Assembly (NCBI GenBank): GCA_964187785.1
Contig: OZ076421.1
Span: 10,540,001 to 10,604,000, forward strand
Source of the DNA: Amphiscolops sp. MND2022
Lineage: Eukaryota
DNA: 64,000 nt
Reading direction: 5' to 3'
Shown: piece after piece, positions 20,583 through 46,333 of the stretch
Position numbering within the stretch: the stretch's first letter is position 1
Layout of the letters: every line of letters begins with the position of its first letter
Made by a program: the position numbers and the translations under genes
Notes under the pieces: model-generated
The model's database searches: none
What the model was told of the DNA's origin: nothing
The model's input: only the letters and a program-made list of their open reading frames with translations

Positions 20583-20789
20583 GCAATGGTTGAAGACGGA
20601 AGGTTGTCGTGACTTACCTCGACGATCCTAATCTGGTGATTCCTGCGATATATTTACAGTCGATGTTTTTTAAAATTATGATACGATGCCCTTATCTATA
20701 AATCTCTCCTCCACTTGATGTTCTTGGTGCTTGTTTCATTCAGGGGACCGTTTTTGACACTGTATGGATGCTCTGCAGCTTGCAGCGAT

Positions 20790-23143
20790 TGTCACGACCC
20801 GCTCCCGGTCGTGGGTGTGAATGGTGTTTCGCCCTAGGAAGAGGCAGAGGAAGGGGATACTGCAAGTACCATTAAAATACTGACTAAACTAATATAATTC
20901 TACTTACAGCGCAGCTAAGATTATTTCGTAGACAATTTTTCAGAATAAGAATCTAACGTATGCGTCACGGAAGATTTTGAGAAATGATTTTTAGCTAAAA
21001 CTTCCGGTTAAAAGATTTCACGCTTAATAGATTTTCCATATCCGGTTTAATCTTCTGAAGTTCGCCATACTGATCTAATTACCAAAATAGACATTTAACA
21101 ACAGGGATTTTTCTTCAGTTCCACACTAAAATAAAACACATTTAAAATCCCGCAATCCCAACGGAATCCATACGATCTAAAAGGAAAAATACATAAAAGA
21201 CAGAGTTGTTTTGGTGTTTTCTGTGATAAAGTAGTTGTCAATACCCACTTAAGGCGCAATCAAGTGACTTAAGAGAGGATTTACAACGTAATGACGGCGT
21301 CACTCTACTGAGCTAAAATTAGATATTCTACTTTCGCGGACTAATAACGTCACCTCCTCGGCAGGATTATTCTTAGCTAGCGCGAGCGGTATTGAATTCG
21401 GTTGCCCCTAGCAACGCCAATCAGAATAAGAGAGAAAGAATGATTTCGCCTACGCGTTCCGCTCGCTTTCTGTCCACTCTGACCTACTAGCTATAAGCAA
21501 TCTTTATACGTACGTAGCAGTTACGTGGCGAATTGTAAAATTGTAGTCCACCTCTCTACTATAAGCAATCTTAATACATACGAAGCATTTACGAAGTGGT
21601 TTGAGAACATATAGTTAGGAAAGAATGGAACGAATGAAAGTTTAAGAGAATTTTTTCTGGTTCATTATTAGCTAAGGAATTTCTTGATTAGGTTTTAGAG
21701 GAAAACAGCTGCTCTGTAAGGAAGGATTATGAGAAGAACAAAGTTGTAATGTCCTGAATTCTATACTAATTTATTACGCCATTGCTATACTTCTTAAATA
21801 CTATTTTACGGAGTGTACCCGTAATTCATACCAATGCTTTCTTTGCAGTTTATGATCAGTTGATGGTGATGAATTTTGCACTAATCCTCGTAAACTTACG
21901 TCATGTTTTCTGTATGATAAAAGCTGTATTACTCAGGACCTAATTCCAAGTCACGAAGTGTATACGTAAATTATACTGATGTCTGTTTGATGCTAATTTT
22001 ATAACCTAACCCTAAATATGATGATGAATGAATGATCCCGAAAGCAATTTCGGATTTGTACCAGTTTTGAAAAGCCTTTGTTACATTGTTTTATTTTTAT
22101 TCTTGTGCTGTTGCAGTTAGTTAGTATTTGGGACATGATACGGAGTATTCCCGTAACCCAAGTCAATTATTATGTTGGATTTCATGTTTGTTGTATACTG
22201 AAGTCAGTCTGCCTTAATGCCCATCAGCATCATTTGTTTCTCGTTTCAAATATTCTCAACGGCGAATTTTCAGCGACGTATCGTTTCCGTCACCATTTTT
22301 GAACATCATCTTTTTCCTCAAAATTCCAACTCCTTGAGTTGGATACTGACTAATAGTTCACGCCGGCGTGCTTACGCCGATGAAAATGTCAGTTAGACTT
22401 CTATTTTACCGCGGTTTTGAAGATCAAACAGGAAATGGATTATCTGAACAAAAATGATTTCAACAAAGTCCCACGGAATGTTGACGCAACTAGGAATTTC
22501 GATACCTGAATTTATGTCGCCAGACTGAAATAATTTGAATCATCGGCGAATTTTGTTGAACAAACCCGATTTTTAAGATTCCTAGGAAATTTTAGGTGAG
22601 GAACAAATGATGCTAAGAAGGTATAAATATGAAGAGAAGACATGTATTTTTAGTTGAACTTGAATTTGTTTCAAAATTTTGTTGCTCGTTGAAATTACGA
22701 AAACTCAAAATTTCTTTGAAGAATTTAATTCTTGCCAAAGACTCTGATATCTCAACTTTTGAAAATGACGACAAGGAGCCAGAAGAGAAAAGCTATAGCC
22801 GAGTTAGCGTCGGGAGATTTTGAAGCTTCTCTAACTGAAAATAACTCCACCGAGAACCTGATACCTAGCTCTAGTAAAAACCCTAGACTTGAGCTTGAAA
22901 ACCTGGAGGAAATAAAAACAACTCTGAGAAAAGAGATAATGACTGATCTAATAAAAATATTAGCTGAAAATCAAAAGGAAATGCTCAAATTAATAGCACC
23001 TGCGAGTAAGAAACGCTCAGTTAATCCGAACTTGCAAGATTCTGATTCTGACCAAGAAAACATCTCCGTAGCAAGAACGTCCACCCCAGTCAAAACACAA
23101 ACTGCGACTAGTTCTAAAACGACACCGAACAATAGTCGTAACA
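20790..23143 (+). repeat. 5' LTR (2354 bp)
   Basis: Starts TGTCACGAC and ends GTCGTAACA (8/9 inverted match). Near-identical to 34953-37299. Confidence 0.97.
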
Positions 23144-24174
23144 TGGTGACAGAAGTCCTCAATGATTTCACTAACCAACCCACCAAAAGACCAAAAGCAC
23201 AACGTATACTCAGCGAACAACCAAAAGACCGACCATCCACGTCAAAGATACTGTTCGCACCACAACCGCAGACGTTCCCATCTGCCCACCCACTTCCGAT
23301 GCCGAAAGCCCTCACAGCTTCGCTTCCAGTTTTTGATGGTAAGTCCGAAAAATTTGAACTTTTTGAGGACTTGTTCCGAAACAATATTAAAATGTATCCC
23401 CACTTGACGGAAATCCAAAAAATCAACTACTTCCACTCACTACTACGCGGGAACGCACTCCAAGCGTACTGCAACTTAGACGACACTAAAAAAGACAATC
23501 TGGAAGAAGTCATAACAGCTTTCAAACGACGTTTTGGCGATTTTCAATCCTCCGCCAAAGCAAGATGCGAGTGGGACGCACTCCACTTTGACCCCACCAA
23601 ACAAAAACTACACGAATTCCTTGATATCCTACAAAAAACCGCCAAAGAAGCGTTTGGCTCTGAAGCACAGAAATTCATCGACAACGCAATCTACGCCAAA
23701 ATGCCCGACCACGTAAAAAAGATACTCAACAGGGCATACTTGGAGGATAAACCCTACAATGATATAATTCTCCACCTCGAACGGGAAATGCGATTAAACG
23801 GACTAGGAGCGCCCGATGAAACCACCCTAGTCCCACTCAACACAGTGGACGCTGTAGTGACGGAAGACAAAAAAGACCAACAACAACGAGGTCATTGTTT
23901 CCACTGCGGAAAATACGGCCACTATAAAGCACAGTGTCGCAGGCTCCAGAGAGAACGCTACAACAACGCCAAACCTCCTACCAAAGACTTAAACCAAAGC
24001 GAAGCCCCCAAACCCAAGTGCAATACATGCGGAAAAATGCACAAAACCGAGAAATGTTGGAACGGAGCAAATGCGGCAAATGACCCCAGACGAAAGAAGA
24101 GGGAATTCACCATCCCCACGGACAAAATCAGTGACGCCCCTGTCCCCACCGCCAACACCCAAACAAAAAACTAA
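22765..24174 (+). CDS. gag: Gag polyprotein (starts inside the LTR)
   Basis: Open from ATG 22765 (MTTRSQKRK) across the LTR end and PBS. Capsid-like 'LPVFDGKSEKFELFEDLF'; zinc knuckles 'CFHCGKYGHYKAQC' and 'CNTCGKMHKTEKC'. Confidence 0.92.
   Translation: MTTRSQKRKAIAELASGDFEASLTENNSTENLIPSSSKNPRLELENLEEIKTTLRKEIMTDLIKILAENQKEMLKLIAPASKKRSVNPNLQDSDSDQENISVARTSTPVKTQTATSSKTTPNNSRNMVTEVLNDFTNQPTKRPKAQRILSEQPKDRPSTSKILFAPQPQTFPSAHPLPMPKALTASLPVFDGKSEKFELFEDLFRNNIKMYPHLTEIQKINYFHSLLRGNALQAYCNLDDTKKDNLEEVITAFKRRFGDFQSSAKARCEWDALHFDPTKQKLHEFLDILQKTAKEAFGSEAQKFIDNAIYAKMPDHVKKILNRAYLEDKPYNDIILHLEREMRLNGLGAPDETTLVPLNTVDAVVTEDKKDQQQRGHCFHCGKYGHYKAQCRRLQRERYNNAKPPTKDLNQSEAPKPKCNTCGKMHKTEKCWNGANAANDPRRKKREFTIPTDKISDAPVPTANTQTKN
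23144..23156 (+). promoter_or_regulatory. Primer-binding site, probably tRNA-Leu
   Basis: TGGTGACAGAAGT immediately follows the LTR. It has one mismatch to TGGTGTCAGAAGT, the complement of a typical eukaryotic tRNA-Leu 3' end. Confidence 0.7.
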
Positions 24175-24212
24175 AATCGCCGCGTCTACGGTTCGGGGAA
24201 AATGTAGACGCG
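24165..24212 (+). promoter_or_regulatory. -1 programmed ribosomal frameshift signal
   Basis: In-frame heptamer A AAA AAC (24165-24171) directly before the gag stop. A perfect 9-bp stem CGCGTCTAC/GTAGACGCG (24181-24189 / 24204-24212) follows after a 9-nt spacer. Confidence 0.75.
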
Positions 24213-27200
24213 AGGGCGTACACCATCGAAGACCCCCCAAACAGATACGAGGAAGGATTTTTTCACAGAATGCAACGAAGAACCGACACAGGACTGGCAA
24301 CGTCGTTGGAACGTAGGCATGATACTTAGACACAATGCACGACACCCAGAAGACCCAATACCACTACCCCAATGGATAACGGAGTCGCCTGACAATTATG
24401 CCACACTGAAACGACCTCTGCCAGAATCCAAAACTGAACGAACATACATATATGACGTGGACTACAGATGTGATCCTTTGGACAACCCCCACATATACGA
24501 CCACAACAAACTTGCTTTCAAAATCCAGATACCAAACCCACAGCCTCAGCACAGAAAAACACATCATTTTCCACCACCGCCCGATATTGAAGAACCCAGG
24601 ACCTTCCCCAACAGTGCCCGTCACCGTCACGTCCACGCCCATAAACGCAGAGGACATCATTTGCATCGAAGATAAAACGTTGTGGCAACAGAAGCCTGAA
24701 GACCCAACCATTGATTCATCATCTCCACCGCCCACACAGACAGCACCAGCCACAGCGGTAACGAGAAGCAACGATGCAGAAATAGAATACCCAACATCAC
24801 TACCCGACGACCTAGACGTCATCAAGGAATTCATACAACATGACAAAGATGACGACTACATTCCGCTAATGTCAGCAATTACACTGAAAAAGAAAAAACG
24901 AATGCTTTTCTTACCAGTAGACTTCAATTCCGTCAAAATAGACGCCCTCGTCGACTCAGGTGCATACATCAACGCCATTAGTGAAAGAGACGCCGAAAAA
25001 TTCCGACAAGATGCAAACCAATGCATCATACACAAGGCACCCCCACCCCCTTTCAAGGTACAATATGCTAATGCTGAACTCGAGCAACCTCTGGCAACGT
25101 ATACATTACGTTTCAAAATTGGCAACTATACCTTAGAGGAAACGTTCATTGTCATGAACCAGGTGTCCTTCCCCATCATCGGACTAGCATTCCTACGGAA
25201 ACATGCCGCAATTCTCGACACTGCCCAGGGAACAATTGACTTCCCGAAGATTCAAATTACGATGGCACTCACAGACGAAATGCAAAAATGCAATCTGAAA
25301 CCTATCACCATTAAAACGGAAGCGAAACATACTATACCAGCACAAGCAACGCGAATAATATACGCAGTGATACCCGTGACAACAGAACACACCATCACAG
25401 GGACAATCCAGCCCCTACCACAATTCGACGAAAACTCAAAACTAATAGTAGCCCCAGCAATCACAACAGTCAGAAGCAAGAAAGTAGCAATCAAGGTCGC
25501 CAACACAACAGACTTCCCCTACACGATAGCTCCAGACACCAAGATCGCGGAACTACAAATTCTCAAACCAGAAGAAACGAAACTGATACGGCCTGTAGAC
25601 ATCGCTGCACTCAACCTTCTAACAGAGCACGACGATGTAGTCACATACATCAACGCACTTATGCAAGTCGACAAACCCGAAGATATTGAAGAAAAATTCT
25701 GGTTCCCAACCCCAGACAACCCTGGCAATGAACAAGAACACACCACCATACAAAAACGAATTTTGAAAGAACTACGAGAACTTGCCGAACTAGAAAAACT
25801 AGATCCAACTGAAAACGCTGAATCTCGACACAAATTCTTTTCGTTATTCAAATGGACTGACTCACTAATTACGGGCAAAGACCGTGAAAACCTTGAAAGC
25901 ACACTAGTCGAATTTAACGACATATTTGCCCGCCACCGTCTCGACATCGGAATGAACACGCAATTCAAAGTCAGCCTCACACCAAGAGATGATAAACCAG
26001 TATACACCCAGAGTCTACCAGTCCCAATCAATCTCAAAGAAGACCTGACAGTAGAGCTGGCCCTCATGCACAAATACGGCATCATCACGACACTCCCCTT
26101 CTCCAAGTACGCCAGTCCTATATTTGCACAACGGAAACCCAACGGCAAACTGAGACTACTGGTGGATCTGCGAAAAATCAACGCGCTCATAGCAGATGAC
26201 TACATCAACAACAACCACCCCGTCAGCACCCTCTCAGATGCGGCACAACACCTAGCTGGGAAAAAACTTTTCTGCAAACTCGACTGCTCCCAAGCGTACC
26301 ACTGCCTTCAAATGGCAGATCAAAGGTCAGTAGAATTACTTGCTTTTAACTTTGCTAGTAGAACGTTCGCCTACCGGCGCCTAGCCCAAGGACTAAGTAG
26401 AGCCCTCTCAGCCTTCTCAAGCTTCATGCGAGAGTACCTCGACGCCGTCATCAAAGCAGATCAGTGTGCACAGTATGTAGATGACATTGGTATTGCCGCA
26501 AATACGACGGAACAACTCATCAAGAACATTAGAGCAGTTTTCAAATGCAACAGACAAGCAGGCCTGAAATTGACAATCGAAAAATGTCATTTCGGAGTTA
26601 CACAAGTTGAATTCCTCGGCAGAACCATCACCCCAGACGGAATAGCACCGCAAGACCAGAAAGTCAAAAACTTCCTTTCTAAAGTCCGATTCCCCAAGTC
26701 CAAAAAACAGGTTCAAAAATACATCGGATTCGTCAATTATTATCGCAATTACATACCCCGCCTGTCCGAAAAACTCATAGGCATGTACGAACTCCTAAAG
26801 GCCGACGCCAAGATCAAAATATCCGAAGAACTCGTCGACAACTTCAAAGAAATCAATGACAGCCTAGCAGAAGCATGTGGCCTCGCGCTCCGACAGCCCT
26901 TAGCAGGAAAGCAATACGTTCTCATGACAGACGCAAGTTTTCGCGCATCCGGCTATGCCCTCATGATAGAAGAAAACGATGAAAAGAAAATACTATCCAA
27001 AAAGAAAACCTTCGCACCTGTCGCGTTTGGATCCCGTGTTTTTTCACCAGCACAACTGAAAAAGTCAATCTATTGCAAAGAATTTCTAGCCATATAACAC
27101 GCCTTCCTCGAATACAGCCATATATTATGGGAAGCGACAATACCGACGCTAGTTTTAACCGACAACCGTTCGGTCACACGATTTTTCCAAACGAAAACTA

Positions 27201-29413
27201 CACCACCTGCACTTTGGAATGCCTGCGACTTTGTACTCCAATTTAATTTCCGCATCATGCACGTAGCAGGGTCACAAAATACGGCAGCAGATTTCCTCTC
27301 AAGACTTGAACTCACACCTAAAGAGAAAGTACAACTGAAATTACGGGACGACATACTTACGGCACCGATAGAAGTAAACCTACAGTCATCGGATGTAGCG
27401 GACGAAGAACAACTTTTCTTCCTCCCAGATGAAGAGGAAGAATCAGAACAAGAAATCTTCGCTAGGAAAGCCCTCAGTAAACAACGTGCCAACGACGAAC
27501 ATGAAAAAGACCTTTCTACCAAAGTCACCGAAGTCATCAAAATACCCCTCAACTCCGCAGTATATGCATTCGGAGCGATCAAAGAAAACGCACGAATCAG
27601 AAATGAACAAGATGCGGACCCCCTACTGAAAGCGTTAAAACAACGGGTGTCGCACGAAGAATACGACAAACACCTACTAAAGACTGAACCACGGGGACGC
27701 CACCTACTACGCCACGAAGAAAGAATCATCATGAAAGATGGGGTACTAATGCGCAAATACTACGGTGAGGACGGATCAGTCACGCACAATCAAGTCATCA
27801 TTCCTAAACACCTTGTACCAGAACTCCTATCAACACTACATGGCAAGACAAATAAACATCCAGGAATAGCAAAGATGATACAAGAATGCCGAGCCAAATA
27901 CTATTTCCCGGGACTAGCACGAAAAATCCGCGCCTGGGTTACCAGTTGCCTAGACTGCATCGCCAACAAAAGAATCGACACGCGACAGATACGTCCCAAA
28001 ATGCTGAGCAACACTGAATTCACATTGGGACCAGAAGATTGCCTAGAAGTAGATATACTACCAAATCTACCATCCTCCAATGGATATCAGCACATCGTCA
28101 CGATGATGGACGTCTTCTCTCGTTATCTTTTCGCATACCCGACACAGGACATGACAGCAAAAACAGTCGCACGATGCATAATAGACGTCATGACACGACA
28201 CTGCTACCTACCGACCGTTATACTAACAGATAAAGGATCACAATTCAGGTCAGAAGTAGTCGACCAAATAGCACGAACACTCGATATACGAATAAGCCAC
28301 GCAACGACGAAACACGCTCAAACCATTGGCATCCTAGAAAGGACTCATGCCTCTTTAAAAACCTCCCTAAAGATATCGACGGGAGAACGACGATCCATGT
28401 GGCACAAATATGTCCAAATAGCAGTCATGAATGACAATACAAGCTACCATGAAAGTTTAGGCTGCGAACCTACAACAGTGTTCCACGGACGCATCCCGTA
28501 TAACATCCTAGACATCAAACTGGGACTAAAGCTGGAATGGAAAAAAGACAACAACGACGAACTAACGGATCAACTACAGAAGCAGATAGCTGAGATACAA
28601 CAAGCAGCTAAAGACAATCTCATGCAGTCATATCTCAAGTACAAACAATACTATGACAAGAAAGCGACTGCAACGCCACTCAAAGTGAATGACTACTGCT
28701 ACGTCTTGAATCCGAAAGCTGACAACCAGTCAATGAAATTCGCTTTCAAAGATTGCATCTGGACGGGTCCGTACATCGTCGTCAAAGTACTGTCCAACAA
28801 CAACTACGTTGTACGCCGCACAGGAACCCGCTACACACAAACCCTCCATAGAATTCGCCTAAGGCTATATGCGCCCAATCAGCGAGTACCTGATGTAACA
28901 GTCAGAAGGGAAGATTACCTTCCAGATCCAGAGGTTAAAACAACCCACAATGATTGGTACGCGCAAGCTTGGGAAACCGAATTCGGAGAAGTTCTGTTCG
29001 GAGACGCAACGGAAAACGCCAAAGAAGAAACTACAATCACAGAGATCACAGATACAATCGAAAATGACGAACCTACAACGCAAAATGACGTGGTTCAAAC
29101 AACCACAAGCGAGATCACAACGGAAAATGACGTGGCTCAAACAGCCACAAATGAAATAGCCGAAGGAGACAAAACACCCCCCGACAACGTAACGTCATTT
29201 AATCTGGATGTCAGTGACAATCCCTATATACTAACACCACCGCCTCTAGAAAGCCCTCCCAAAACGCCTGAACTACCGCCTATAGTCGTTGGATATAACC
29301 CTAGGAAAGTAGGTCGATACAATCTGAGACCTAATCCGAAACCTAACGTGGATCCTGACTTCAGAATGCTAGACTCAGCTACGACGGAAGAACTACGTCA
29401 AACTCACGCCTAG
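24171..29413 (+). pseudogene. pol: Pol (protease, RT, RNase H, integrase), disrupted in this copy
   Basis: PR 'ALVDSGA'; RT 'YVDD'; RH 'TDAS..KEFLAI..TDN'; IN HHCC 'LHG..HPG..CLDC', 'TDKGSQF', 'ERTH' and GPY motif. Frame changes near 24258-24263 and ~24605, and an in-frame TAA at 27095-27097. Confidence 0.92.
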
Positions 29414-29562
29414 AACGAAAAGTTCCTCATGTCAAACCGAACCGGAATGACTACGTTAATTATAACAAAAAATACAAATAAAATGCCAAAAACAACGCCA
29501 AAATATCATCAACAATAACAAACATCAAACAGTCTATAACCTATAAATGTCTACTATCACAA

Positions 29563-32500
29563 TTATGCCACTCTATGGACGACATCAGGATCTCGTTCCT
29601 CACTAGAATCCTTCTTCTGCCCCTTTGTACCACTTTTTGGTTTCTTCGACTGTCCAGAATGACTAGACTGACTAGATACCTTTTTCACAGACTTTGACCC
29701 GGACGCACCACCATGTATCGTAGTACTCCCGCTCTTACTCTTCTTCGAGGCGCCGCTCACATTACTGCCGGTCTCTGATCCAGAAGCCCCGACACTGCCA
29801 CGAGCACGTCTGTTCGCTTTATTGCACTCCACATAATACCTCTCTGAAGATTTGCGGCGTTCCAGCAAAAATGTAGAATACAATTTGCGATAGTTGGCGA
29901 TGAATGAGTCCACACCAGGATCACAGTAATTCTTCCAGAGATCATAGCCGGGAGTAATATAAAAGATCCCTGCAGTAACGATGGCATCTCGAACCGCATC
30001 CAAAGTCACATCAGTAAAGAACACCTGATGCTCATACCCCGCACACAAAACGTACGATTGCACTAAGCGTACGCAATCATGGAAGACAGCTTTACTCAAA
30101 GCACAGCCGCTCAGATCAAATGATACGGGAGGATACTGCACTGCGGGGACCCCAACTACAAGACAGCATAACTTCAGAACTCGGCACACTTCCGGACGAG
30201 CGACAAAGCTAAAGTCCTGCAGCAAATAGCGTACCACATCCGGGATCTCACTGGCATTCACGTCAGACCCTTCGTGCCACCTCCTTTTCTCCACCACGTA
30301 ACTGCTGAATTGAGCAATAGCAGCGTTCGAATCATCGGACGACAAAATTCCACAGGAAACCAATACTCCAGTAAGATCCGCAAATAAGGTAAACACGGAA
30401 TGGGCATCTCCCTCCAACAGAATCTCAGGACTGAAACTGCAGAGGCCTTTCGCCACAACAGATGACACACTAGGACTGTTCAAAATGACAGTGACCAGCT
30501 GATCCAGGAAATCACGACAATATCTACGGAACTCCTGAGCCTCAGACGTTTTTCCAGCGAGCAACTCACGACCGAAGTCACAATTGTCCAAGAAAGTCTC
30601 CATTGATGCAGCAGGGTATTCGGACATTTTCTTCACGTCCATGTACGCCTCCCAATCATGGATACCAGGCAATGACTCAATCTCCCGAGTCCGCAGAAGT
30701 AGACAATACACAAAATGACACAATTCACTGTAGCCATGGAAGCCGTAATCCTTTCGTTGCTGACGCATTTTCTCAAAATTAATTTGAACTAAAACACCAA
30801 CAAGGGTTTACAAAGATAACGCCGAACACTACAACCGAACACCAAACGCAATCAGACAATAACAAACGACACAATTATACTGGATAGATACAAGCATCAA
30901 TTGAGAACAACACCAATCAGCATCATACTTACAAGTGTCGAGAACAAATCGCAGCAGACCCAAGCGCTGCACGATCATGTTATCAGCAATCAGATGGCAG
31001 TCTGTCCCCAACATCTGGAAAAGAACAAAAACACAATCAAACCGACTATAGCTACAAACAACACGTGATGCAAACGACAAAGCAACCAATAAAAATACTA
31101 ACAGTAGCTGATTTGCCACGTGCTTCGGGATTGACAGTACAACGGATGTACGGACGAATTGAAGGCCAAAGACTAATCAAGTCCGTCAACAACTCGCGAT
31201 ACTCATAGAACTCAACGGAGCCTCTTCGAAGACATCTGCAGGGCACAACCTTGTCCTCCGTCCACTCCTCGTAAACAGCATTCCGGAGCCGTTGAATCAA
31301 ATACTCCACGATGGTAATAATATCTACCATCCCAAATATGTCCTGATGGGCTTGACGCAGGAACTGTATGAAGGTCTCCTCATTGAACTCGTGGTACACA
31401 ACAAAACGGCGACCATCCGAACGACTACTGCCCATCACACTCAGCAAACTGGGACTGGCACCACGAACAATCAACGGCAAATGCTTTGACTCCAAAACAT
31501 GGATCACGCGGGACAAGGGTACCAACTCTGCATCAGGAACGGGCTGCTCAATAGGCTCACTCCCCACACACACTTTCTTCAACTGATTACTTTCCCAAAA
31601 TAGGACGTAGCAACGCTCCACGAAAAGATCTTTCTCGAACTGGACACTATAGTCCTTGAACGTCGTTATCCCATTGACCATTAGACGGAGAACTCGAGGA
31701 GCAAGCCCCTGACAGAGAAACGACTAAAATACAAACGCCACAATGATTCGTTATACCTACGTCTGAAAGAGAAAAAAAAGAAAGGAAAAAGAGAGAAGAA
31801 GAAGAGCACAATAACTCCAAAAGAAGAACACTATTGAAAACAACAAATAAAACTGGGAAATTATGAACTCTCAAACTCCAAACGATGAACAGGAAGACAA
31901 ACACACAAAACACACAACTTACCACGGATTCCGAACGACTCCAATGCAAAGTGAAATCAGCCTTTTGCTTGTCCAGTGACACACAAAAGTGACTCCAGAG
32001 TTGCCGCACCAGAGCAAAATCGCCTCCACAACGCAACAAATCACAGAGACAGCCCACAAAGGTCATGAAGGGAATTTTTGATTCCACGCGGGAGTGTTTC
32101 GGCAGGAGATCCTCAGGAAACGGATACCCAGTACCCAGCTCAACGAAAGGCTTCGCGCGATACTCAGCAAGCTGCTCTTCACTTAGCTGCAAGGGCTCCA
32201 TCAGTTTGTTCAACACGGGCATGCCCATATGAACCCGGTATACGACATCCTTGTCCCAGTGACTGTCAGACCGGAAATGCCGAGCAAACTCTCGAGACCC
32301 CTGCGATCCCATGGCCACATCACGCTTACAGACCAGGCAATGAAAGTGAGTCCCGGCCCCCGTCTTTGATCCGCTCACGAAATCACGGTATGCGGAATGC
32401 AACGATAACATGCGTTTGCTCAACATGTTCTTGCGACTGTACTTTTTGGCTTTTGTGCGACTGCCAGTTTGCGCGTCCATCCTCGCTTTCAACTCACTGA

Positions 32501-33532
32501 AACCTGTAACACACGACAAACGGAATGACATCGTGGAAAACCATACCCTAAAAGCCCACCCTGCAACCAACCTATACATATAGTACAAACAAATACTCAC
32601 TATTTCGAATTGCCCGAGCAGTCCGCGTGTCAACTTCTTCCACAATCTGCTGACCCATCAACTTCAGACCCTGCGGACTCAACGTCAACTCGTCGTTACC
32701 TACAACACAATGACACTACAAAACAACCTTACAAAGTAGATGATTTCAAAAATCACACTATTTTAACTCGTCAAGATATTCGAACCCCACAACAATACCC
32801 GTGCAATAGTGTGATAATACAAAATGCACTAACTAATCCACCCCTCGGCAGGAGTCAATGGTGAAGGAGGAGGAGTATCGCCCGTTTTAGCTCGTTTAGG
32901 CGGTGTCGAAAAGCTCACGACCTGTGACCGCCTTTGACGAACTGAAGGACCTAAAACACAAACCCAATACTCCCATCACTAGCCACCTTTTTTCAGCGCA
33001 TTAATACGACAACGACAAAACCTACTAACTTGTTTCTTCCTCGGAGGGGGAATCAGTCTCACCTCCTCGAGACACAGCATCGAGTTGAGTACGAGAGCAA
33101 GTCGTAACAATATCCTCAGTAGGAGGAAATTCAGCGGGCACGGCCGACGTAGCTGCCTGGGCAAGCGCAGCCCTAAAGCCAGGAGGAGTTCCAACTGACA
33201 GGAGACTACTAGCTGGTGGCAAAACGGGAGAGGGATTTCCCACAACCAATCCAAGAGAAGTGGAAGGAAAACCAGGTTGAGCTACTGAAAATCAAGATCT
33301 GGATTCAGACGCGTCAGAGTTACGGGTAGGACCAAAAAGGCTGATCACCAAAAATACCAAGGTCCGGATTCCCATGGAAGTCAGAAAGGTTTTACCAACC
33401 TGAAGTAGACAATCCAACTACATTCTCCGTAGACACTATGTCATCTTCGGAATAATTGTAGCCAGTCTCATTTCCACTTATGTGACCAGAAGTTACAGCA
33501 GTGCCACGTTCTACCTCTTCTTGATCCATCAT
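29563..33532 (-). CDS. Antisense 8-exon gene: ~1037-aa zinc-finger plus hAT-transposase-derived protein
   Basis: Exons 33532-33400, 33284-33030, 32950-32834, 32699-32601, 32503-31923, 31723-31103, 31014-30933 and 30788-29563. All seven introns are GT-AG and phase-compatible (3114 nt, 1037 aa plus stop). Motifs: C2H2 'CLVCKRD..RHFRSDSH', 'WSRSESV|SFLCQGLAP', 'FWESNQLKK..GSEPI', 'LWPSIRPYI', 'EFRRYCRDFL..LCSFSP'. Confidence 0.8.
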
Positions 33533-34174
33533 ACCAGACACGAAGAAAGACGAATTGTCAAGGAAATCTAAAAGAAAAGAGAAATATAAAACAGAAACTA
33601 CACGGAACTATCACGGAAATCCTAAAAAGAAAATTGAAAAAGACGAAAACGCGTTACGTGAACGCATCTAATTAAAAGAACTTAATATCATTCTCACTCA
33701 AAAGGAAAAGGAACCATTCATAGCTTCATATCTCAAGCTTATCATAAGCATTGACGAAACAAAACGTTTCCAAAAACCCTACTGGTGGATAGACATTCAT
33801 CGAGAATTACTAAAGGAAATCATGGAAAAACATCAAGAGATCATGAAATACGGACGTAATTCGACAATGAAAATCAAAGATGTCATTACGCCATTAATCT
33901 AAAAGAGGACGAGAGCTAAAATTAGAAGTTTTCCTTAAGGATTTAAACCAATCACAGCACAGCAGGAAAGAGTTCGTTTCACCTAACTCGGGACGAACCG
34001 GAACGAAAACAAAATCGACCATTAAGAATTCGATGGAAATTACGAAAGAAAGCAAAGTGAAACGTTCATTTGTCGTTCAATTTTCACAAAGCTTGACCAG
34101 CGCTTCACTAATCTAAATAAACAATCTCGCCTGCATAAATTAAAGAAACTTCGCAATTTCTACCGCTTTAAAAA

Positions 34175-35038
34175 ATGGCAGGATATTCACTAGTCATCGA
34201 CATCTCATCAGATGAAGAAAATATGAGACATAGCACGCCATTGAAGACCGTACCGGTAAATATGGTCGGAAGACTTGACCTTAGTGACTCTTCCACGGAA
34301 GTTTACCGTGGAAGCGTCGCCGAATTAGAGTCAAGCCCAGAATCGCCAGCGAAAGAAACACCGACACCCAGGAAAAAGAAAAGGCTAACAAGAGTATCTT
34401 TTGCCCTACCCGAAGACGTCGACTCTGATGACTACTATGAAGAACCCGAGACTCCTACTCTTCCCCCTCAAAGTAAAGAAAAAGAAAATTTCCCCACACT
34501 GGGTAATGAAAGGAAACGAGGGACTATCGTGGCCCAGGGAGGAAACGGACCCTCCGCAGACGACTTAGAGGCCCTCTACGATCTTGACTTAGAAGACCGC
34601 CAATTTTTCAGGTCCCTAGGACGAGGAAATAACGTAACAAAGAAGCCAAGCCAGCCTCCTTTCAAGCCTTGCAGGAAAGTAAATACCCCCCTCACGCAAT
34701 TAGCAGACTCAAGCTTGAATGATCTGAATGAACCAATCAAGCCACCTGAAATCACCCAAGAGGAACGGGAACATTTCGAAAACATGGTGCGGGAACTTGA
34801 AGAAGAAGAAAAGAGAATTGCCCGTATGACTGCGGGGAGAGGTCGCGGCCCCCACCCGATGAGAAACTACCTAAGCCGACCCTCAGTGCTAGTCACAAAA
34901 GAAATTCCCCATTGCCACGGCCTACCAACGTATTTAGCGAGGAGAGGGGCCCTGTCACGACCCGCTCCTGGTCGTGGGTGTGAATGGTGTTTCGCCCTAG
35001 GAAGAGGCAGAGGAAGGGGATACTGCAAGTACCATTAA
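34175..35038 (+). CDS. Accessory ORF3 (287 aa, low complexity, unknown function) overlapping the PPT and 3' LTR
   Basis: Uninterrupted ATG-TAA ORF with 'VIDISSDEE' (SIM-like), 'PRKKKR' (NLS-like) and RG repeats. The last 28 codons lie in the LTR. Confidence 0.75.
   Translation: MAGYSLVIDISSDEENMRHSTPLKTVPVNMVGRLDLSDSSTEVYRGSVAELESSPESPAKETPTPRKKKRLTRVSFALPEDVDSDDYYEEPETPTLPPQSKEKENFPTLGNERKRGTIVAQGGNGPSADDLEALYDLDLEDRQFFRSLGRGNNVTKKPSQPPFKPCRKVNTPLTQLADSSLNDLNEPIKPPEITQEEREHFENMVRELEEEEKRIARMTAGRGRGPHPMRNYLSRPSVLVTKEIPHCHGLPTYLARRGALSRPAPGRGCEWCFALGRGRGRGYCKYH
34939..34952 (+). promoter_or_regulatory. Polypurine tract
   Basis: GAGGAGAGGGG followed by CCC, immediately before the 3' LTR TGTCAC. 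Confidence 0.85.
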
Positions 35039-37299
35039 AATACTGACTAAACTAATATAATTCTACTTACAGTGCAGCTAAGATTATTTCGTAGACAATT
35101 TTTCAGAATAAGAATCTAACGTATGCGTCACGGAATATTTTGAGAAATGATTTTTAGCTAAAACTTCCGGTTAAAAGATTTCACGCTTAATAGATTTTCC
35201 ATATCCGGTTTAATCTTCTGAAGTTCGCCATACTGATCTAAATACCAAAATAGACATTTAACAACAGGGATTTTTCTTCAGTTCCACACTAAAATAAAAC
35301 ACATTTAAAATCCCGCAATCCCAACGGAATCCATACGATCTAAAAGGAAAAATACATAAAAGACAGAGTTGTTTTGGTGTTTTCTGTGATAAAGTAGTTG
35401 TCAATACCCACTTAAGGCGCAATCAAGTGACTTAAGAGAGGATTTACAACGTAATGACGGCGTCACTCTACTGAGCTAAAATTAGATATTCTACTTTCGC
35501 GGACTAATAACGTCACCTCCTCGGCAGGATTATTCTTAGCTAGCGCGAGCGGTATTGAATCCCCTAGCAACGCCAATCAGAATAAGAGAGAAAGAATGAA
35601 TTCGCCTACGCGTTCCGCTCGCTTTCTGTCCACTCTGACCTACTAGCTATAAGCAATCTTTATACGTACGTAGCAGTTACGTGGCGAAATGTAAAATTGT
35701 AGTCCACCTCTCTACTATAAGCAATCTTAATACATACGAAGCATTTACGAAGTGGTTTGAGAACATATAGTTAGGAAAGAATGGAACGAATGAAAGTTTA
35801 AGAGAATTTTTTCTGGTTCATTATTAGCTAAGGAATTTCTTGATTAGGTTTTAGAGGAAAACAGCTGCTCTGTAAGGAAGGATTATGAGAAGAACAAAGT
35901 TGTAATGTCCTGAATTCTCTACTAATTTATTACGCCATTGCTATACTTCTTAAATACTATATTACGGAGTGTACCCGTAATTCATACCAATGCTTTCTTT
36001 GCAGTTTATGATCAGTTGATGGTGATGAATTTTGCACTAATCCTCGTAAACTTACGTCATGTTTTCTGTATGATAAAAGCTGTATTACTCAGGACCTAAT
36101 TCCAAGTCACGAAGTGTTTACGTAAATTATACTCATGTCTGTTTGATGCTAATTTTATAACCTAACCCTAAATATGATGATGAATGAATGATCCCGAAAG
36201 CAATTTCGGATTTGTACCAGTTTTGAAATGCCTTTGTTACATTGTTTTATTTTTATTCTTGTGCTGTTGCAGTTAGTTAGTATTTGGGACATGATACGGA
36301 GTATTCCCGTAACCCAAGTCAATTATTATGTTGGATTTCATGTTTGTTGTATACTGAAGTCAGTCTGCCTTAATGCCCATCAGCATCATTTGTTTCTCGT
36401 TTCAAATATTCTCAACGGCGAATTTTCAGCGACGTATCGTTTCCGTCACCATTTTTGAACATCATCTTTTTCCTCAAAATTCCAACTCCTTGAGTTGGAT
36501 ACTGACTAATAGTTCACGCCGGCGTGCTTACGCCGATGAAAATGTCAGTTAGACTTCTATTTTACCGCGGTTTTGAAGATCAAACAGGAAATGGATTATC
36601 TGAACAAAAATGATTTCAACAAAGTCCCACGGAATGTTGACGCAACTAGGAATTTCGATACCTGAATTTATGACGCCAGACTGAAATAATTTGAATCATC
36701 GGCGAATTTTGTTGAACAAACCCGATTTTTAAGATTCCTAGGAATTTTTAGGTGAGGAACAAATGATGCTAAGAAGGTATAAATATGTAGAGAAGACATG
36801 TATTTTTAGTTGAACTTGAATTTGTTTCAAAATTTTGTTGCTCGTTGAAATTACGAAAACTCAAAATTTCTTTGAAGAATTTAATTCTTGCCAAAGACTC
36901 TGATATCTCAACTTTTGAAAATGACGACAAGGAGCCAGAAGAGAAAAGCTATAGCCGAGTTAGCGTCGGGAGATTTTGAAGCTTCTCTAACTGAAAATAA
37001 CTCCACCGAGAACCTGATACCTAGCTCTAGTAAAAACCCTAGACTTGAGCTTGAAAACCTGGAGGAAATAAAAACAACTCTGAGAAAAGAGATAATGACT
37101 GATCTAATAAAAATATTAGCTGAAAATCAAAAGGAAATGCTCAAATTAATAGCACCTGCGAGTAAGAAACGCTCAGTTAATCCGAACTTGCAAGATTCTG
37201 ATTCTGACCAAGAAAACATCTCCGTAGCAAGAACGTCCACCCCAGTCAAAACACAAACTGCGACTAGTTCTAAAACGACACCGAACAATAGTCGTAACA
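34953..37299 (+). repeat. 3' LTR (2347 bp)
   Basis: Copy of 20790-23143. By eye it has ~14 substitutions and one 7-bp deletion (TCGGTTG). Confidence 0.97.
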
Positions 37300-38145
37300 G
37301 CGATCTGGCACCTTGCCTATCTTTTTGTGACTGCCCATGCTTCAACTCGGGCTAATTCCATTTCATGAAGACCCTTTTAAAATGGTTTCAGTTCGCACGG
37401 TCCTTATTTCAATAATTTTCCGGTCCTTCTTGTATCTACTTTTTTGCCTTCACCAATTCGATTGATACCTTTTTCTCGACATCCAGCTCTTCCGAAATCA
37501 TAATTTTCTCCATGAATGAATAACATTGCCTCAACATTTGTTTTTCGAAGTTAAGAGACTTTTCTTCACGTATGTTTCTACCTCGAAACATATTTCAGTT
37601 TCAGAGAGGCATGATCATTTTCTGCCAGGGGCTGTGAGTATTCAGTTTTTCCGCAGGTGTTGGCGCATCTGAAAACACAATATCTATTTGTGTTGTTGTC
37701 ATTTTTCCGTATTCGTGTTAGTCTGTTGATATGTTGGATTAGGAAAGACTGCGAAAAAGTACTCAGAAGCTCAGAAGTTCACTATACTGGCGTTCTATTG
37801 TGTTTCAACAGTCGGATTTTGAAACATTTAAAACACCAATATTGAATTTTCATAGACGCTTCCTTGGTAAATTCGTTAAGCATGTTCTCATTCTCGATAC
37901 TACGAATAGTGAGAAACGCGTTCGAATAAATTTGTAACCTTTTAGTTTTCGTCGGGAACCGAGCGATTGGTCGACAACTTTTTAGAGGCTTGTACGATTC
38001 GTCGACACGCTTACCAATTCGTCGACAAATTTCTTTACCAGTCGTCCAATAAGTTTCGTGATCAAAATTGGAAATATTTTGTTGTTTGTCGACCAGTGGT
38101 CCAAACTACTCTATCAAGGTATTGGTTGTCGACCAGTAGTCCAAA

Positions 38146-41100
38146 TGTGTTGTTGTTGTTGTAGTGGCTTTACAGCTAGGCTGAAGGGACTTCTCCCCGA
38201 CGGTTATTATCAGAATATCCTATTTGTGTTTCGGCAGTTTTGACAGTCACAGTATATTTGGTAGGTGCACAATTGATCTTCAAGATAGAGCTGGTGAAAG
38301 TATTGCCACATGAAGTCCAGAATTCTATTTTTGAGCCCCAAAGGTTCGAAAAATGCCACTCTCTCCGGAAGTTTGTTCGCAAGTCGACACGTTCTGAAAC
38401 AGAACTCGACGCGAGCTTTCTCAGTACGGGCAGTTTTTATATCAAACATCATTCTGCCCTTTTTAGACATTGTCGTTGTGATATTCAAATCAACCCCCGT
38501 GAAGCGCAATTCGTGAAAATATTTTGAGAGGAATAGTAGGTTCTTTAGTTGGAAGAACATAGGCACTGGTAGAAGATTGCATTTTAAGAGAAGCTCTTTG
38601 TGAGTCGAATGATAGTCATGACATACCTATTTGAGGACTCTTTTCTGGAAATTTTCAAGTAATTTTAAACTGGTTCGGGAAAGGCTGAAGCAGCAACAAG
38701 CAAATGACAGAAGTGGCAGTAGCATAGATTTATACAATTTTAGTCTGACTCGTATTTGTGTAGCGGAGGTTTTCCTTTTGATAAAGAAGAAAACTGTGTT
38801 GGCTTTACGAATTTTGCTTTCAATATGGGTTGACTATGACAAATTACTAGTTACCATCAATCCAAGATCTTTGGCAGATGTAAGTCCCAGGAGAGGTAAG
38901 TTACTCAAATAGAATTGTTCTTCCGTTGTGCCTCGGAATGTAACTATAAAACATTTTAGGTCCTTGACAGCAAAAGACATCCTGTTTTCCACTCCCCATT
39001 TAGTAAGGTTATGAGGTCTAATTGAAAATTTCTTTGTTGTTAATCACTATGCTTTTCAGGTCGTCGGCATACAAGAAAGGTTCACTCACTATAGATTAAA
39101 TATTTCGGTAGATCGTTGATAAATATGAGAAACATTAACGGTCCAATAACAGACCCTTGCGGCACTCCACTTGTTATAAGAAGTTGATCAGAGCGTTCAT
39201 TGCCACAACGGACAATTTGGTATCGATCTGTTAAGTAATCTTTGAGAACCTCCAGTAGACATCCACCAATCCCTATTTTAGATATTTTTTGAATTAACTC
39301 ATAGTGAGCAACTTTGTCAAAAGCTTTCGCCATGTCTGCATACAATGCAATGATGGATTTAGTTGTTGGGTCGTCATAGCTATTGTAAATTTTCTGTAAA
39401 AAAGAAAGCAAATTTGTTTCGACAGACTTGTTCTTGACAAAGCCATGTTGGGAAGAAGTTATTTGGTCAGAAAAACAGTCGTAGATATGCGAGTACAGAC
39501 ACTTTTCAAAGATTTTCTCGAATACATCAAGTATTGCTACTGGTCGGTAATTTGACACATCTTTCTTGCTAGACTTTTTGTGACTAGGTGAAATAGCGCT
39601 AATTTTCCACACTTTTGGTATTCTTTTCTGCCTTTTGATATTTCTGAAGATATGATTGAGTGCTTTGCTCAGAGGTGCAGCCAAGTTTTTGATCAACAAA
39701 GGCGGAATACCATCAGGGCCTCTAGATTTGGTCTCATCTAAATCTTCGATATATTTTCGGATAGTACTAACTGATGTCTCGAAATTTGTTGTTTTCGGGT
39801 CTTCGCAATATATATCACTTGGTGACGTGTTTTTCGGCAAATAAACAGATTGGAAGTAATTATTGAAAAGGTTTAACGTTTCTTTGACGCTGTTAGACTC
39901 TTGTCCGTTTAGAACAACTGTTCAAGGAAGAGCGGACTCTTTACTCATTCGTTTGAAATGTTTGAACATTAAATCAGTGTTTCTTGTTTCTGCAATTTTC
40001 GTTTGATAGTCATTTCTATCTTGTTCGCTCGATTTCCAAAACTCGGTTTCCAGTGTTTTAATTTTTTGGTTGCGGTACGCAGTTGGCTTCAACTTCAGTA
40101 ATTTCCTCTGTGTTTCAAGTTTTTTTAACAAGTGAGAGGTCTGCGGGGTGAACCAACTTGGTAACGTTTGTCTGTGAGTCGTTCGTCGGGGAACACATTT
40201 TTCAATATTATCATTGAGATAAACATAGAATTCGTTTACCATGTTATCTATGTTCGAGTAACAAGTCGGTTCGAAAGGAGAATTTTCCATAATCTTTAAA
40301 ACTTCATCATAATCAGCAGCATTGAAACTGTACGCAGGCTTTGTGGCAGTTTGTTGTGTATAGATGGGCATTTCAATTTCTAGGGCAACAGGAGTATGGT
40401 TTGATATATTGTACAATTTTTCAACAATATGATTTTCTTCGCATAGTATTGAGAGGTTTCTGTGTAAGGCAATATCTAGAGTGTTCTTCCCGCAAGTTGG
40501 AATAGTTACTGCTTGCTGTAGACAGTGTTTGTCAAAAAAGATCCAGGACCTCTCTCTCAAAATCATCTTCACTATGAAACGTATTCCAATTTGTTTGGGT
40601 GGGGGAAGTTTATATCTCCACAAAAAAGTATTTGATTTTTCTGGAATCTCGTTGACAATGTTAGCAACAATTCGAAATCACTCACAGTGTGTCGGTACAC
40701 GCTTTCTTTAGGGGGACTGTGAAATGCACAGATCATCAGCTTATCGTTGTTGATAGTAACTTCGACTGCCACACAACACTGGGGTAAGTTGTGCTCAATT
40801 TTTGAGGAAGAAATTTTTTGATACAGCAATAAGTGATCCACCACGAGTAGATATGTTCTCTTCTCTAGAGGGCCTATCAGCTCGATAAAGCTCATAAGTT
40901 TCAAGAAAAAGTTTTTTATCAGAGATATTTGAATGAAGCCAGGTTTCACTAACACATGCAGCTAGAAAACCGCCTCCAATTACAGCAGCAGAAAATTTTC
41001 TTCGCCTATCTTCATTTATCAAGCTTTTTGCATTTAGGACTAATATGTTCATTGAACATAGTCACTTGGCGGTAGGAGTAATTTCAATTCTGATATCTTT

Positions 41101-42383: not shown

Positions 42384-45300
42384 ATACACCGTAAATGATT
42401 TCATATTAGGTGGGGAAAACTACCTTAAATAATTTAAACGCTTTTAAACACTTTACAGGAGCAAAAACCTAGCAAAACCGGAAAAATTCGATCTCAAAAC
42501 CTTCGATCCATTTTCGATCTCGCTTTTCGCTCACACAAAAATTCGATACAAAAATACCCCATCATATTTGAAATGGTCAATTGCAAAACCTGCAAGAAGG
42601 GCATCGGCAAGGGTGGCAGCTTTCAATGTGTGGGATGCAGCCTGGAGATGCACCTTTCTGAAGTGTGTACTGGTCTTTCATCGGTGGCTATTACCGGAAT
42701 CAAGGAGCTCTGCGTGAGTGTTGTTGTTTTCTGTGACGAGTGTGTGACTACCCACAGGCGTGATAGAGTCCTGGAGGCCATTAACACCCAAAACCTACAA
42801 TATAAGTATCAATTTCCCGATCTTGGAGCGAAATTTGAAAAAATTGAGAAAAAATGTCTCTGATGATGGAAATGAAATTGAACTCGTCTGAAAAACCTCT
42901 TACAAAGGTTATTGAGAGCAAAGTACTCTCTGGTTCAAAAGCTGAGATACCAAACCATAACCCCAAAAAGGTTGATCACGACACCAACAAAAGTCTGCGA
43001 ATTCAGGGTATCCCTGAGGATTTTGATAAACCAGACAAAGAGAATATCCTACTGACAAATGAAAGACTGAAAGATGTTTTCAATACACTGGGAGTCACCA
43101 GTCCAATAGTTAATGTGAAAAGACTGGGAAAATTTGACAATTATAGATCAAAGCGCAGAACAATAATGGTTGAAGTATCGAATGAATGGGAAAAACGAAC
43201 AATTTTTGCCAAAAGTATCGAAAAACGAACAGAACTGATGAACAAAAATATCTACATATTGCCAGCGTTAACGAGAGAGGAAGCGTTCAAAGAAAATGCA
43301 TGCTTGAAAAAAAGACGAGAATTAATTGAATTTGGAGTCGCCAGGAGTGTGCTCAAATTAAGAAATTTTGAACTCTTCCAAAAAGATATCAGAATTGAAA
43401 TTACTCCTACCGCCAAGTGACTATGTTCAATGAACATATTAGTCCTAAATGCAAAAAGCTTGATAAATGAAGATAGGCGAAGAAAATTTTCTGCTGCTGT
43501 AATTGGAGGCGGTTTTCTAGCTGCATGTGTTAGTGAAACCTGGCTTCATTCAAATATCTCTGATAAAAAATTTTTTCTTGAAACTTATGAGCTTTATCGA
43601 GCTGATAGGCCCTCTAGAGAAGAGAACATATCTACTCATGGTGGATCACTTATTGCTGTATCCAAAAGTCTTTCTTCCTCAAAAATTGAGCACAACTTAC
43701 CCCAGTGTTGTGTGGCAGTCGAAGTTACTATCAACAACGATAAGCTGATTATCTGTGCATTTTACAGTCCCCCTAAAGAAAGCGTGTACCGACACACTGT
43801 GAGTGATTTCGAATTGATGCTAACATTGTCAACGAGATTCCAGAAAAATCAAATACTTTTTTGTGGAGATATAAACTTCCCCCACCCAAACAAATTGGAA
43901 TACGTTTCATAGTGAAGACGATTTTGAGAGAGAGGTCCTGGATCTTTTTGACAAACACTGTCTACAGCAAGCAGTAACTATTCCATATTGCGGGAAGAAC
44001 ACTCTAGATATTGCCTTACACAGAAACCTCTCAATACTATGCGAAGAAAATCATATTGTTGAAAAATTGTACAATATATCAAACCATACTCCTGTTGCCC
44101 TAGAAATTGAAATGCCCATCTATACACAACAAACTGCCACAAAGCCTGCGTACAGTTTCAATGCTGCTGATTATGATGAAGTTTTAAAGATTATGGAAAC
44201 TTCTTCTTTCGAACCGACTTGTTACTCGAACATAGATAACATGGTAAACGAATTCTATGTTTATCTCAATGATAATATTGAAAAATGTGTTCCCCGACGA
44301 ACGACTCACAGACAAACGTTACCAAGTTGGTTCACCCCGCAGACCTCTCACTTGTTAAAAAAACTTGAAACACAGAGGAAATTACTGAAGTTGAAGCCAA
44401 CTGCGTACCGCAACCAAAAGATTAAAACACTGGAAACCGAGTTTTGGAAATCGAGCGAACAAGATAGAATTGACTATCAAACGAAAATTGCAGAAACAAG
44501 AAACACTGATTTAATGTTCAAACATTTCAAGCGAATGAGTAAAGAGTCCGCTCTTCCTTCAACAGTTTTTCTAAACGGACAAGAGTCTAACAGCGTCAAA
44601 GAAACGTTAAACCTTTTCAATAATTACTTCCAATCTGTTTATTTGCCGAAAAACACGTCACCAAGTGATATATATTGCGAAGACCCGAAAACAACAAATT
44701 TCGAGACATCAGTTAGTACTATCCGAAAATATATCGACGATTTAGATGAGACCAAATCTAGAGGCCTTGATGGTATTCCGCCTTTGTTGATCAAAAACTT
44801 GGCTGCACCTCTGAGCAAAGCACTCAATCATATCTTCAGAAATATCAAAAGGCAGAAAAGAATACCAAAAGTGTGGAAAATTAGCGCTATTTCACCTAGT
44901 CACAAAAAGTCTAGCAAGAAAGATGTGTCAAATTACCGACCAGTAGCAATACTTGATATATACGAGAAAATCTTTGAAAAGTGTCTGTACTCGCATATCT
45001 ACGACTGTTTTTCTGACCAAATAACTTCTTCCCAACATGGCTTTGTCAAGAACAAGTCTGTCGAAACAAATTTGCTTTCTTTTTTACAGAAAATTTACAA
45101 TAGCTATGACGACCCAACAACTAAATCCATCATTGCATTGTATGCAGACATGGCGAAAGCTTTTGACAAAGTTGCTCACTATGAGTTAATTCAAAAGGTT
45201 TCTAAAATAGGGATTGGTGGATGTCTACTGGAGGTTCTCAAAGATTACTTAACAGATCGATACCAAATTGTCCGTTGTGGCAATGAACGCTCTGATCAAC

Positions 45301-46333
45301 TTCTTATAACAAGTGGAGTGCCGCAAGGGTCTGTTATTGGACCGTTAATGTTTCTCATATTTATCAACGATCTACCGAAATATTTAATCTATAGTGAACC
45401 TTTCTTGTATGCCGACAACCTGAAAAGCATAGTGATTAACAACAAAGAAATTTTCAATTAGACCTCATAACCTTACTAAATGGGAAGTGGAAAACAGGAT
45501 GTCTTTTGCTGTCAAGGACCTAAAATGCTTTATAGTTACATTCCGAGGCACAACGGAAGAACAATTCTATTTGAGTAACTTACCTCTCCTGGGACTTACA
45601 TCTGCCAAAGATCTTGGATTGATGGTAACTAGTAATTTGTCATAGTCAACCCATATTGAAAGCAAAATTCGTAAAGCCAACACAAATTTCTTCTTTATCA
45701 AAAGGAAAACCTCCGCTACACAAATACGAGTCAGACTAAAATTGTATAAATCTATGCTACTGCCACTTCTGTCATTTGCTTGTTGCTGCTTCAGCCTTTC
45801 CCGAACCAGTTTAAAATTACTTGAAAATTTCCAGAAAAGAGTCCTCAAATAGGTATGTCGTGACTATCATTCGACTCACAAAGAGCTTCTCTTAAAATGC
45901 AATCTTCTACCAGTGCCTATGTTCTTCCAACTAAAGAACCTACTATTCCTCTCAAAATATTTTCACGAATTGCGCTTCACGGGGGTTGATTTGAATATCA
46001 CAACGACAATGTCTAAAAAGGGCAGAATGATGTTTGATATAAAAACTGCCCGTACTGAGAAAGCTCGCGTCGAGTTCTGTTTCAGAACGTGTCGACTTGC
46101 GAACAAACTTCCGGAGAGAGTGGCATTTTTCGAACCTTTGGGGCTCAAAAATAGAATTCTGGACTTCATGTGGCAATACTTTCACCAGCTCTATCTTGAA
46201 GATCAATTGTGCACCTACCAAATATACTGTGACTGTCAAAACTGCCGAAACACAAATAGGATATTCTGATAATAACTGTCGGGGAGAAGTCCCTTCAGCC
46301 TAGCTGTAAAGCCACTACAACAACAACAACACA
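42384..46333 (+). mobile_element. CR1/L2-group LINE, decayed (right-arm copy)
   Basis: Mirror of 38146-42097, with ORFs 42573-42863, 42854-43420, 43430-43912, 44067-45461 and 45913-46269. RT motif reads YADN here. (CAA)n tail. Confidence 0.92.

Follow-up and report, generated by a model that had tools for sequence, protein, structure and literature searches.

The retrotransposon and its antisense gene

The window, that is the whole stretch of 64,000 nucleotides that was analysed, holds a 16.5-kb Ty3/gypsy LTR retrotransposon at 20790-37299 (Table 1). Besides TG...CA LTRs and a short TSD, the element carries a PBS and a PPT, and Pfam matches to gag, protease, RT, RNase H and integrase follow the gypsy order. 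A 5-bp TSD was present at 8/8 full elements of the family examined. The first ATG of gag lies roughly 126 codons before the LTR end, and the part of the frame at 22765-23143 is kept at 56–85% in other subfamilies. In the window copy the RNase H region of pol is interrupted by an in-frame stop at 27095-27097, while the antisense gene of the same copy is intact; the stop is private to this copy, a sense codon being found in 14/14 aligned close copies and in 26/26 diverged ones. The 287-aa sense ORF downstream is conserved and had no family match in Pfam; its distances follow those of integrase and not those of the antisense cassette.

The window from 3953 to 64000 forms a giant inverted repeat centred at about 42240 with arms 97–99% alike, which may in part be an assembly effect, the window containing 200 N bases. 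The LTR element is found in one arm only and its insertion was therefore later than the duplication. Further RT fragments (Pfam RVT_1) at 16585-18090, 39082-40677, 43875-45461 and 49877-54314 are duplicated across the repeat.

Between pol and the 3' LTR, on the minus strand, lies an antisense gene of 8 predicted exons (33532-29563) whose 7 introns are all GT-AG and whose exons join into a single open frame of 1037 aa without stops. Splicing through these 7 introns is predicted from the sequence. The donors of introns 1, 5, 6 and 7 and the acceptors of exons 2, 5, 6, 7 and 8 were identical in 10/10 aligned diverged copies, junctions 2–4 aligned poorly between subfamilies, and five tested splice dinucleotides were intact in 149/150 cases among 30 close copies. 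An initial annotation had placed an antisense hAT-like protein at 29900-32400, and every protein string that it quoted was located on the minus strand; the gene is indeed there, but its true extent is larger. The S/P/T-rich N-terminal stretch of about 200 aa with a PPKRAKT motif, also described there, was recovered as exons 1–4 (198 aa, S+P+T = 33%), with PPKRAKT falling in exon 3 and thus beyond that range.

Table 1. Features of the retrotransposon in window coordinates; the exons are those of the predicted gene model.
Feature	Position	Strand	Remarks
5-bp TSD	20785..20789; second copy 37300..37304	+	empty site present on the other arm of the inverted repeat
5' LTR, TG...CA ends	20790..23143	+	2354 bp; 99.1% identity to 3' LTR
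gag	22765..24174	+	first ATG inside LTR
pol, PR-RT-RH-IN	24410..29413	+	Pfam
Exon 8, helical insertion and C-terminal hAT region, S/G/K-rich tail, stop	29563..30788	-	E3 site ~30121-30135 without conserved acid
Exon 7	30933..31014	-	predicted gene model
Exon 6, RNase H-like first half	31103..31723	-	D1 site 31634-31636 (Glu), D2 31463-31465, CxxH 31376-31387
Exon 5, BED-like C2H2 finger and N-terminal hAT domain	31923..32503	-	ligand codons 32339, 32330, 32279, 32261
Exon 4	32601..32699	-	predicted gene model
Exon 3, basic NLS-like PPKRAKT	32834..32950	-	putative NLS role
Exon 2, S/P/T-rich	33030..33284	-	predicted gene model
Intron 1	33285..33399	-	unusually conserved, partly covarying stem
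Exon 1, start codon	33400..33532	-	predicted gene model
Candidate internal promoter, two CCAAT-type boxes	33940..34060		between antisense gene and 287-aa sense ORF; putative role
Sense ORF, 287 aa	34175..35038	+	head-to-head with antisense gene
3' LTR	34953..37299	+	LTR comparison

Relationship of the antisense protein to hAT-type transposases

By sequence, the antisense exons had no match in Pfam or PDB, Pfam zf-BED and PF04195 (the Retand-type TRP28 domain) did not match the window protein, and word-based protein searches for longer relatives were empty. Classical hATs proved too distant, as judged from HHalign against 8 classical hAT ORFs (E 0.48) and from exon profiles run against 30 classical hAT loci of the same genome (best E 0.28). 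A donor family was obtained by scanning a short motif pattern over the genome, which gave 4 sites, in decayed transposase ORFs, against 0 in the control. One decayed ORF retrieved 128 long proteins, and 119 of the 120 listed were aligned with exclusion of a kinesin fusion. Over the 779 columns of this alignment D211, D278, C310-H313 and R378-W379 were invariant and E662 was present in 118/119, the family motifs being D, D, CxxH, RW and ExGFS.

In this genome the family consists of internally deleted hAT5-like DNA transposons that Pfam does not recognise. The copies have CAGGG TIRs and a TSD of 5 bp in 6/11 cases and 6 bp in 2/11, the remaining 3/11 not being resolved. Links to classical hAT ORFs were weak (CxxH-RW E 6e-6, ExxFS E 0.0017); PF05699 was found in none of 32 donor-family proteins and a weak zf-BED in 3, and Hermes gave no match to the family. 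Families of hAT with a 5- or 6-bp TSD are named hAT5 and hAT6 in the text available from PMC12730594. On account of the CAGGG TIRs, the mostly 5-bp TSDs and the weak classical hAT links the donor is called hAT5-like, an assignment set by motifs, TIRs and TSD.

Exons 5–8, concatenated with X between them, matched the donor alignment in HHalign at 98.6% (E 6e-16), collinearly over 642 columns that span donor columns 15–731 of 779, compared with an E of 0.19 for the reversed donor control. Exon 8 by itself reached 97.5% (E about 5e-12 to 1e-11) with a score of 96 against at most 20 in 20 column shuffles, and the exon 5 finger an E of 7e-5 to 1.5e-4 with a score of 41 against at most 28 in the shuffles. 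Exon 6 alone was marginal (E 0.012–0.014; score 25.7, best shuffle 25.2), with 191 columns in the right order, and exon 7 alone had no match to the donor. The hAT resemblance noticed by eye in the initial annotation is accordingly beyond chance, and the profile comparison that it had called for finds a hAT-type DDE transposase family, at an identity of about 15–18%.

Structure models contributed less. The exon 6 model (pLDDT 46) has three strands followed by a helix, and Foldseek placed Hermes at ranks 2, 8, 20 and 35 with an E of 0.19 or worse, which is not significant, and the model is poor; a wide fold search with exon 6 returned generic helices alone, Hermes being absent from the listing. 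Exon 8 is modelled as all-helical (pLDDT 88) and had no PDB match in a fold search. An atlas search gave no usable match for exon 8 and, for exon 6, a lead at 0.85 to C21orf140-like and DDE_3/DDE_1 clusters that is to be read as a lead alone, and a metagenome scan yielded 83 pattern matches, 0 of them confirmed.

The donor residues D211, E212, D278, C310 and H313 occur at 0.00 in the antisense copies and E662 at 0.08; the zinc ligands C47, C50, H68 and H81 are kept in 93–96% of rows. The D1 position is Glu in 29/29 copies (posterior 0.73), D2, at exon-6 position 87, is V/L/C/R/S with Asp in 0/29 (posterior 0.45), and CxxH reads F-x-x-E/D (posterior 0.68), corresponding to F113-x-x-E116 of exon 6 ('FNEE'). 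The RW dipeptide occurs in 0/29 exon-6 copies (posterior 0.30); Trp154, invariant and set in W-x-E-D, may be the former RW Trp. SHG and ExGFS are gone as well, and E3 is without a conserved Glu at an unsure register (posterior ~0.17). The catalytic loss claimed in the initial annotation is thereby borne out: the donor alignment places its 'FEK' and 'VRG' at the FDE and SxDG (MDG) positions, and the absence of ERxFS agrees with that of ExGFS, albeit in the region of uncertain register. Its reading of 'VVYH' as CxxH was wrong by five residues, that His being present in 1/29 copies.

Mutation of the DDE residues of Kat1 abolishes cleavage, and hairpinning depends on CxxH, according to the accessible part of PMC4763223; in view of these mutant results, the loss of DDE and CxxH makes transposase activity very unlikely. 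No TIR pair with TSD was found around the antisense gene, and 16 nt shared by subterminal DNA of the donor and ~33815-33830 (E 0.002) are not kept in other copies and were put down to chance. Judged by its sequence, the antisense gene very probably descends from a hAT5-like transposase and has lost the catalytic residues.

Selection on and exchange of the antisense gene

Searches of the 1.07-Gb genome scored 122 of 7405 candidates for exon 8, at least 53 of which were full-length, at least 98% identical and stop-free, and 150 of 6075 candidates for exon 6. The gene was antisense and adjoined integrase at 30/30 diverged loci, one of them without exons 1–7, and the LTRs of family members were 96–99.9% alike. 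A representative library contained 695 exon-8 relatives, and the 10 that were looked up were ENA fragments; the library relative tested (n = 1) matched this genome at 40% at best, which indicates that other genomes carry the family.

The antisense frame is under purifying selection. dN/dS was 0.033–0.147 for the antisense exons in 9/27 exon comparisons, dS being saturated in the other 18, and 0.018–0.041 for integrase in the same analysis; at a dN of 0.05–0.38 as against 0.015–0.056, the antisense gene evolves faster. Among 30 young copies, shared synonymous to nonsynonymous variants stood at 23:3 in exon 6 and 46:10 in exon 8, compared with 24:14 in the integrase C-terminus; reading exon 8 on the other strand gave 8:42. 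The CpG observed/expected ratio was 0.9–1.1 and the excess of CpG mutations just 2.3-fold, so that, with no CpG depletion, there appears to be little methylation to counter.

Exchange of the antisense gene between lineages is cassette-like and independent of the LTR and pol. Integrase and exon-6 trees of 25 elements shared 2/22 splits, and each alignment rejected the tree of the other. Nine regions were compared in 17 of the 30 elements, namely those with all nine. Exons 5, 6 and 8 had 7–9 strong splits in common among themselves and 0 conflicts, as opposed to 0 shared strong splits and 3–10 conflicts with three LTR and three pol blocks (4–10 with the LTR alone), in copies that had been picked for antisense-gene diversity and with template switching favouring conserved flanks. 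LTR and pol distances correlated at 0.63–0.77 in the same 17 elements, and in a sliding scan the exchanged block ran from about 29.5 to about 33.7 kb.

The introns were likely gained after capture, inside the retroelement, since the donor ORF in this genome is unbroken across the positions of introns 5 and 6 and most donor-family proteins are single products of 757–855 aa on 2–5 kb contigs, in a search that selected long proteins. Splicing does not remove antisense-strand introns from genomic RNA, and they would therefore survive reverse transcription. No other non-coding part of the cassette is as conserved as intron 1, which carries the palindrome GACGCGTC; its mean p-distance over 22 elements was 0.097, compared with 0.31–0.43 for the exons and 0.14–0.16 for integrase, and it is a candidate regulatory DNA or RNA element. 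As 2/29 pairs of its stem covary and single-sequence folding z ranged from +0.8 to −1.4, a structured RNA is not established; Rfam gave no match.

Possible roles of the antisense protein

Our preferred reading, to which we assign a probability of roughly 45%, is that a dead hAT5-like transposase with introns and its own promoter forms an exchangeable anti-silencing or transactivating cassette, whose protein would bind DNA in the nucleus and, as a regulator, sustain transcription of the element. An ancestral hAT5-like element would have landed in reverse orientation between pol and the 3' LTR and shed its TIRs, and the introns would persist as they lie opposite the genomic RNA strand. The gene would be expressed from its own CCAAT-type promoter near 33940-34060, the first box of which was found in 21/22 aligned elements, and the protein might, as a multimer, bind a site common to all subfamilies and open chromatin. 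The regulatory part draws on the analogy with TnpA and with transposases that activate their cognate copies, dead ones turning into regulators (bioRxiv 10.64898/2026.08.24.746577, in the text available), and the antisense product of maize Grande is nuclear with its own promoter (PMC7264820). Against this stand the absence of co-segregation with the LTR and of lineage-specific protein-site pairing among 17 elements, the lack of tandem arrays and of CpG depletion, conservation of the whole C-terminal scaffold, which is more than DNA binding by the finger needs, and the low posteriors at D2 (0.45), RW (0.30) and E3 (0.17).

The conserved scaffold bears on a rather unlikely alternative in which a protein of the same origin acts on host factors, as a decoy or antagonist of the silencing machinery, and is exchanged as variants gain an edge. 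Its large helical domain, cassette swaps independent of LTR and pol and evolution faster than that of integrase would all fit, but the zinc ligands are kept, dN/dS is far below 1, and the swapping may merely reflect template switching in conserved flanks. A DNA-binding protein might equally repress the element, as self-restraint or copy-number control. All of the sequence evidence fits this equally well, and intron 1, being conserved, could serve for autoregulation; we nevertheless consider it unlikely, as the at least 53 near-identical copies and the similarity of the LTRs point to recent bursts with the gene intact. The finger and the NLS-like motif would also suit a protein that tethers the integration complex to chromatin or brings it into the nucleus, a role proposed for antisense ORFs (PMC7264820), but the conflict between its tree and that of integrase is unlike what an obligate partner would give, and this is quite improbable.

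The protein could also be a remodelled nuclease or metal-binding enzyme that uses new acidic residues where the active site used to be. E30 of exon 6, at the D1 site, and E115 are invariant (29/29), E116 is acidic in 25/29 copies and an exon-8 Asp near the E3 region in 71/90. With no acid at D2, with CxxH, RW, SHG and GFS all lost and with no TIR substrate, such an enzyme is very unlikely. A neutral passenger or a nested autonomous hAT insertion is scarcely credible. The protein is homologous to a DNA transposon of the same genome, but identity to the donors is low, selection is strong and 0/30 loci lie outside an LTR element; dN/dS and motif loss rule this explanation out. Neither a DDE triad nor TIRs with a TSD were found at the gene, and the domestication by a retrotransposon that the initial annotation had put forward agrees with selection and with the position beside integrase at all 30 loci.

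Relative to transposases of the hAT5/hAT6 type, the protein retains collinear homology from finger to C-terminus with donor copies that have CAGGG TIRs and 5–6-bp TSDs, but the gene lacks DDE, CxxH, RW and TIRs, moves by reverse transcription, and has seven predicted introns and an added S/P/T-rich head. Host-domesticated hAT genes such as SLEEPER and DREF are single-locus. So are the ZBED genes, which likewise put a hAT scaffold and BED-type finger to regulation and often keep DDE (accessible part of PMC3606216); in the present case it is a mobile element, present in hundreds of copies, that has done the domesticating. Plants and fungi are known to have antisense ORFs between pol and the 3' LTR (Retand TRP28 with PF04195, maize Grande gene23, RIRE2, Boty), and the text available from PMC7264820 and PMC11963269 states their origin to be unknown and a TE-insertion origin to lack support. 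Position, orientation, near-universal presence in copies and proposed DNA binding and regulation are alike in these sources, whereas the present gene lacks PF04195, consists of several exons and has a donor that could be named.

Spm TnpA and VANDAL VANC are likewise transposon-encoded accessory regulators, TnpA too being transposase-derived (bioRxiv 10.64898/2026.08.24.746577 and PMC5735166, as far as available), and VANC goes back to a MAIN-like host protein according to the accessible text of PMC13547354. As described there, both serve DNA transposons and match lineage-specific motifs, whereas in this case the carrier is a class I element and the protein, of class II, does not follow the LTR. 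Cassette exchange independent of LTR and pol disfavours a VANC-like lock-and-key on lineage-specific LTR motifs. The VANC analogy of the initial annotation is thus weakened in its strict form of co-evolution with own motifs, by the tree conflict with the LTR, the lack of CpG depletion and the absence of tandem arrays, none of which were found in the element. The ORF3 captures of rotifer LTR elements (env, GDSL esterase, DEDDy exonuclease) are similarly modular extra genes but, in the available portion of PMC5408684, not transposase-derived.

No published LTR element with a hAT-derived accessory gene was found in the open-access literature, Repbase Reports being outside its scope, so that the family may already be catalogued; nor was any report found there of an antisense LTR-element ORF traced to a DNA-transposon donor. 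The origin of this antisense ORF would be traceable in that donor family, lost residues and kept residues can all be named, and the gene suggests intron gain within a retroelement. It is a candidate transposon-encoded counter-silencing factor and would add a retrotransposon, as domesticator, to the hosts and DNA transposons in which a dead transposase has become a regulator. If the preferred reading is true, a retrotransposon domesticated a DNA transposon as an animal-type counterpart of TnpA/VANC across transposon classes, a model for the source of orphan antisense ORFs in LTR elements.

Given that no lineage-specific protein-LTR pairing was seen, any DNA target should be common to all subfamilies, and intron 1, a conserved promoter block of the LTR and a motif after the pol stop are candidates. 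The promoter-like block lies at 36480-36800 in the 3' LTR and, across 8 LTRs, has the palindrome TTCCTAGGAA upstream of a TATA-like box. The motif at 29432-29460, right after the pol stop, is near-invariant in the aligned elements and has a 13-nt look-alike at 33994.
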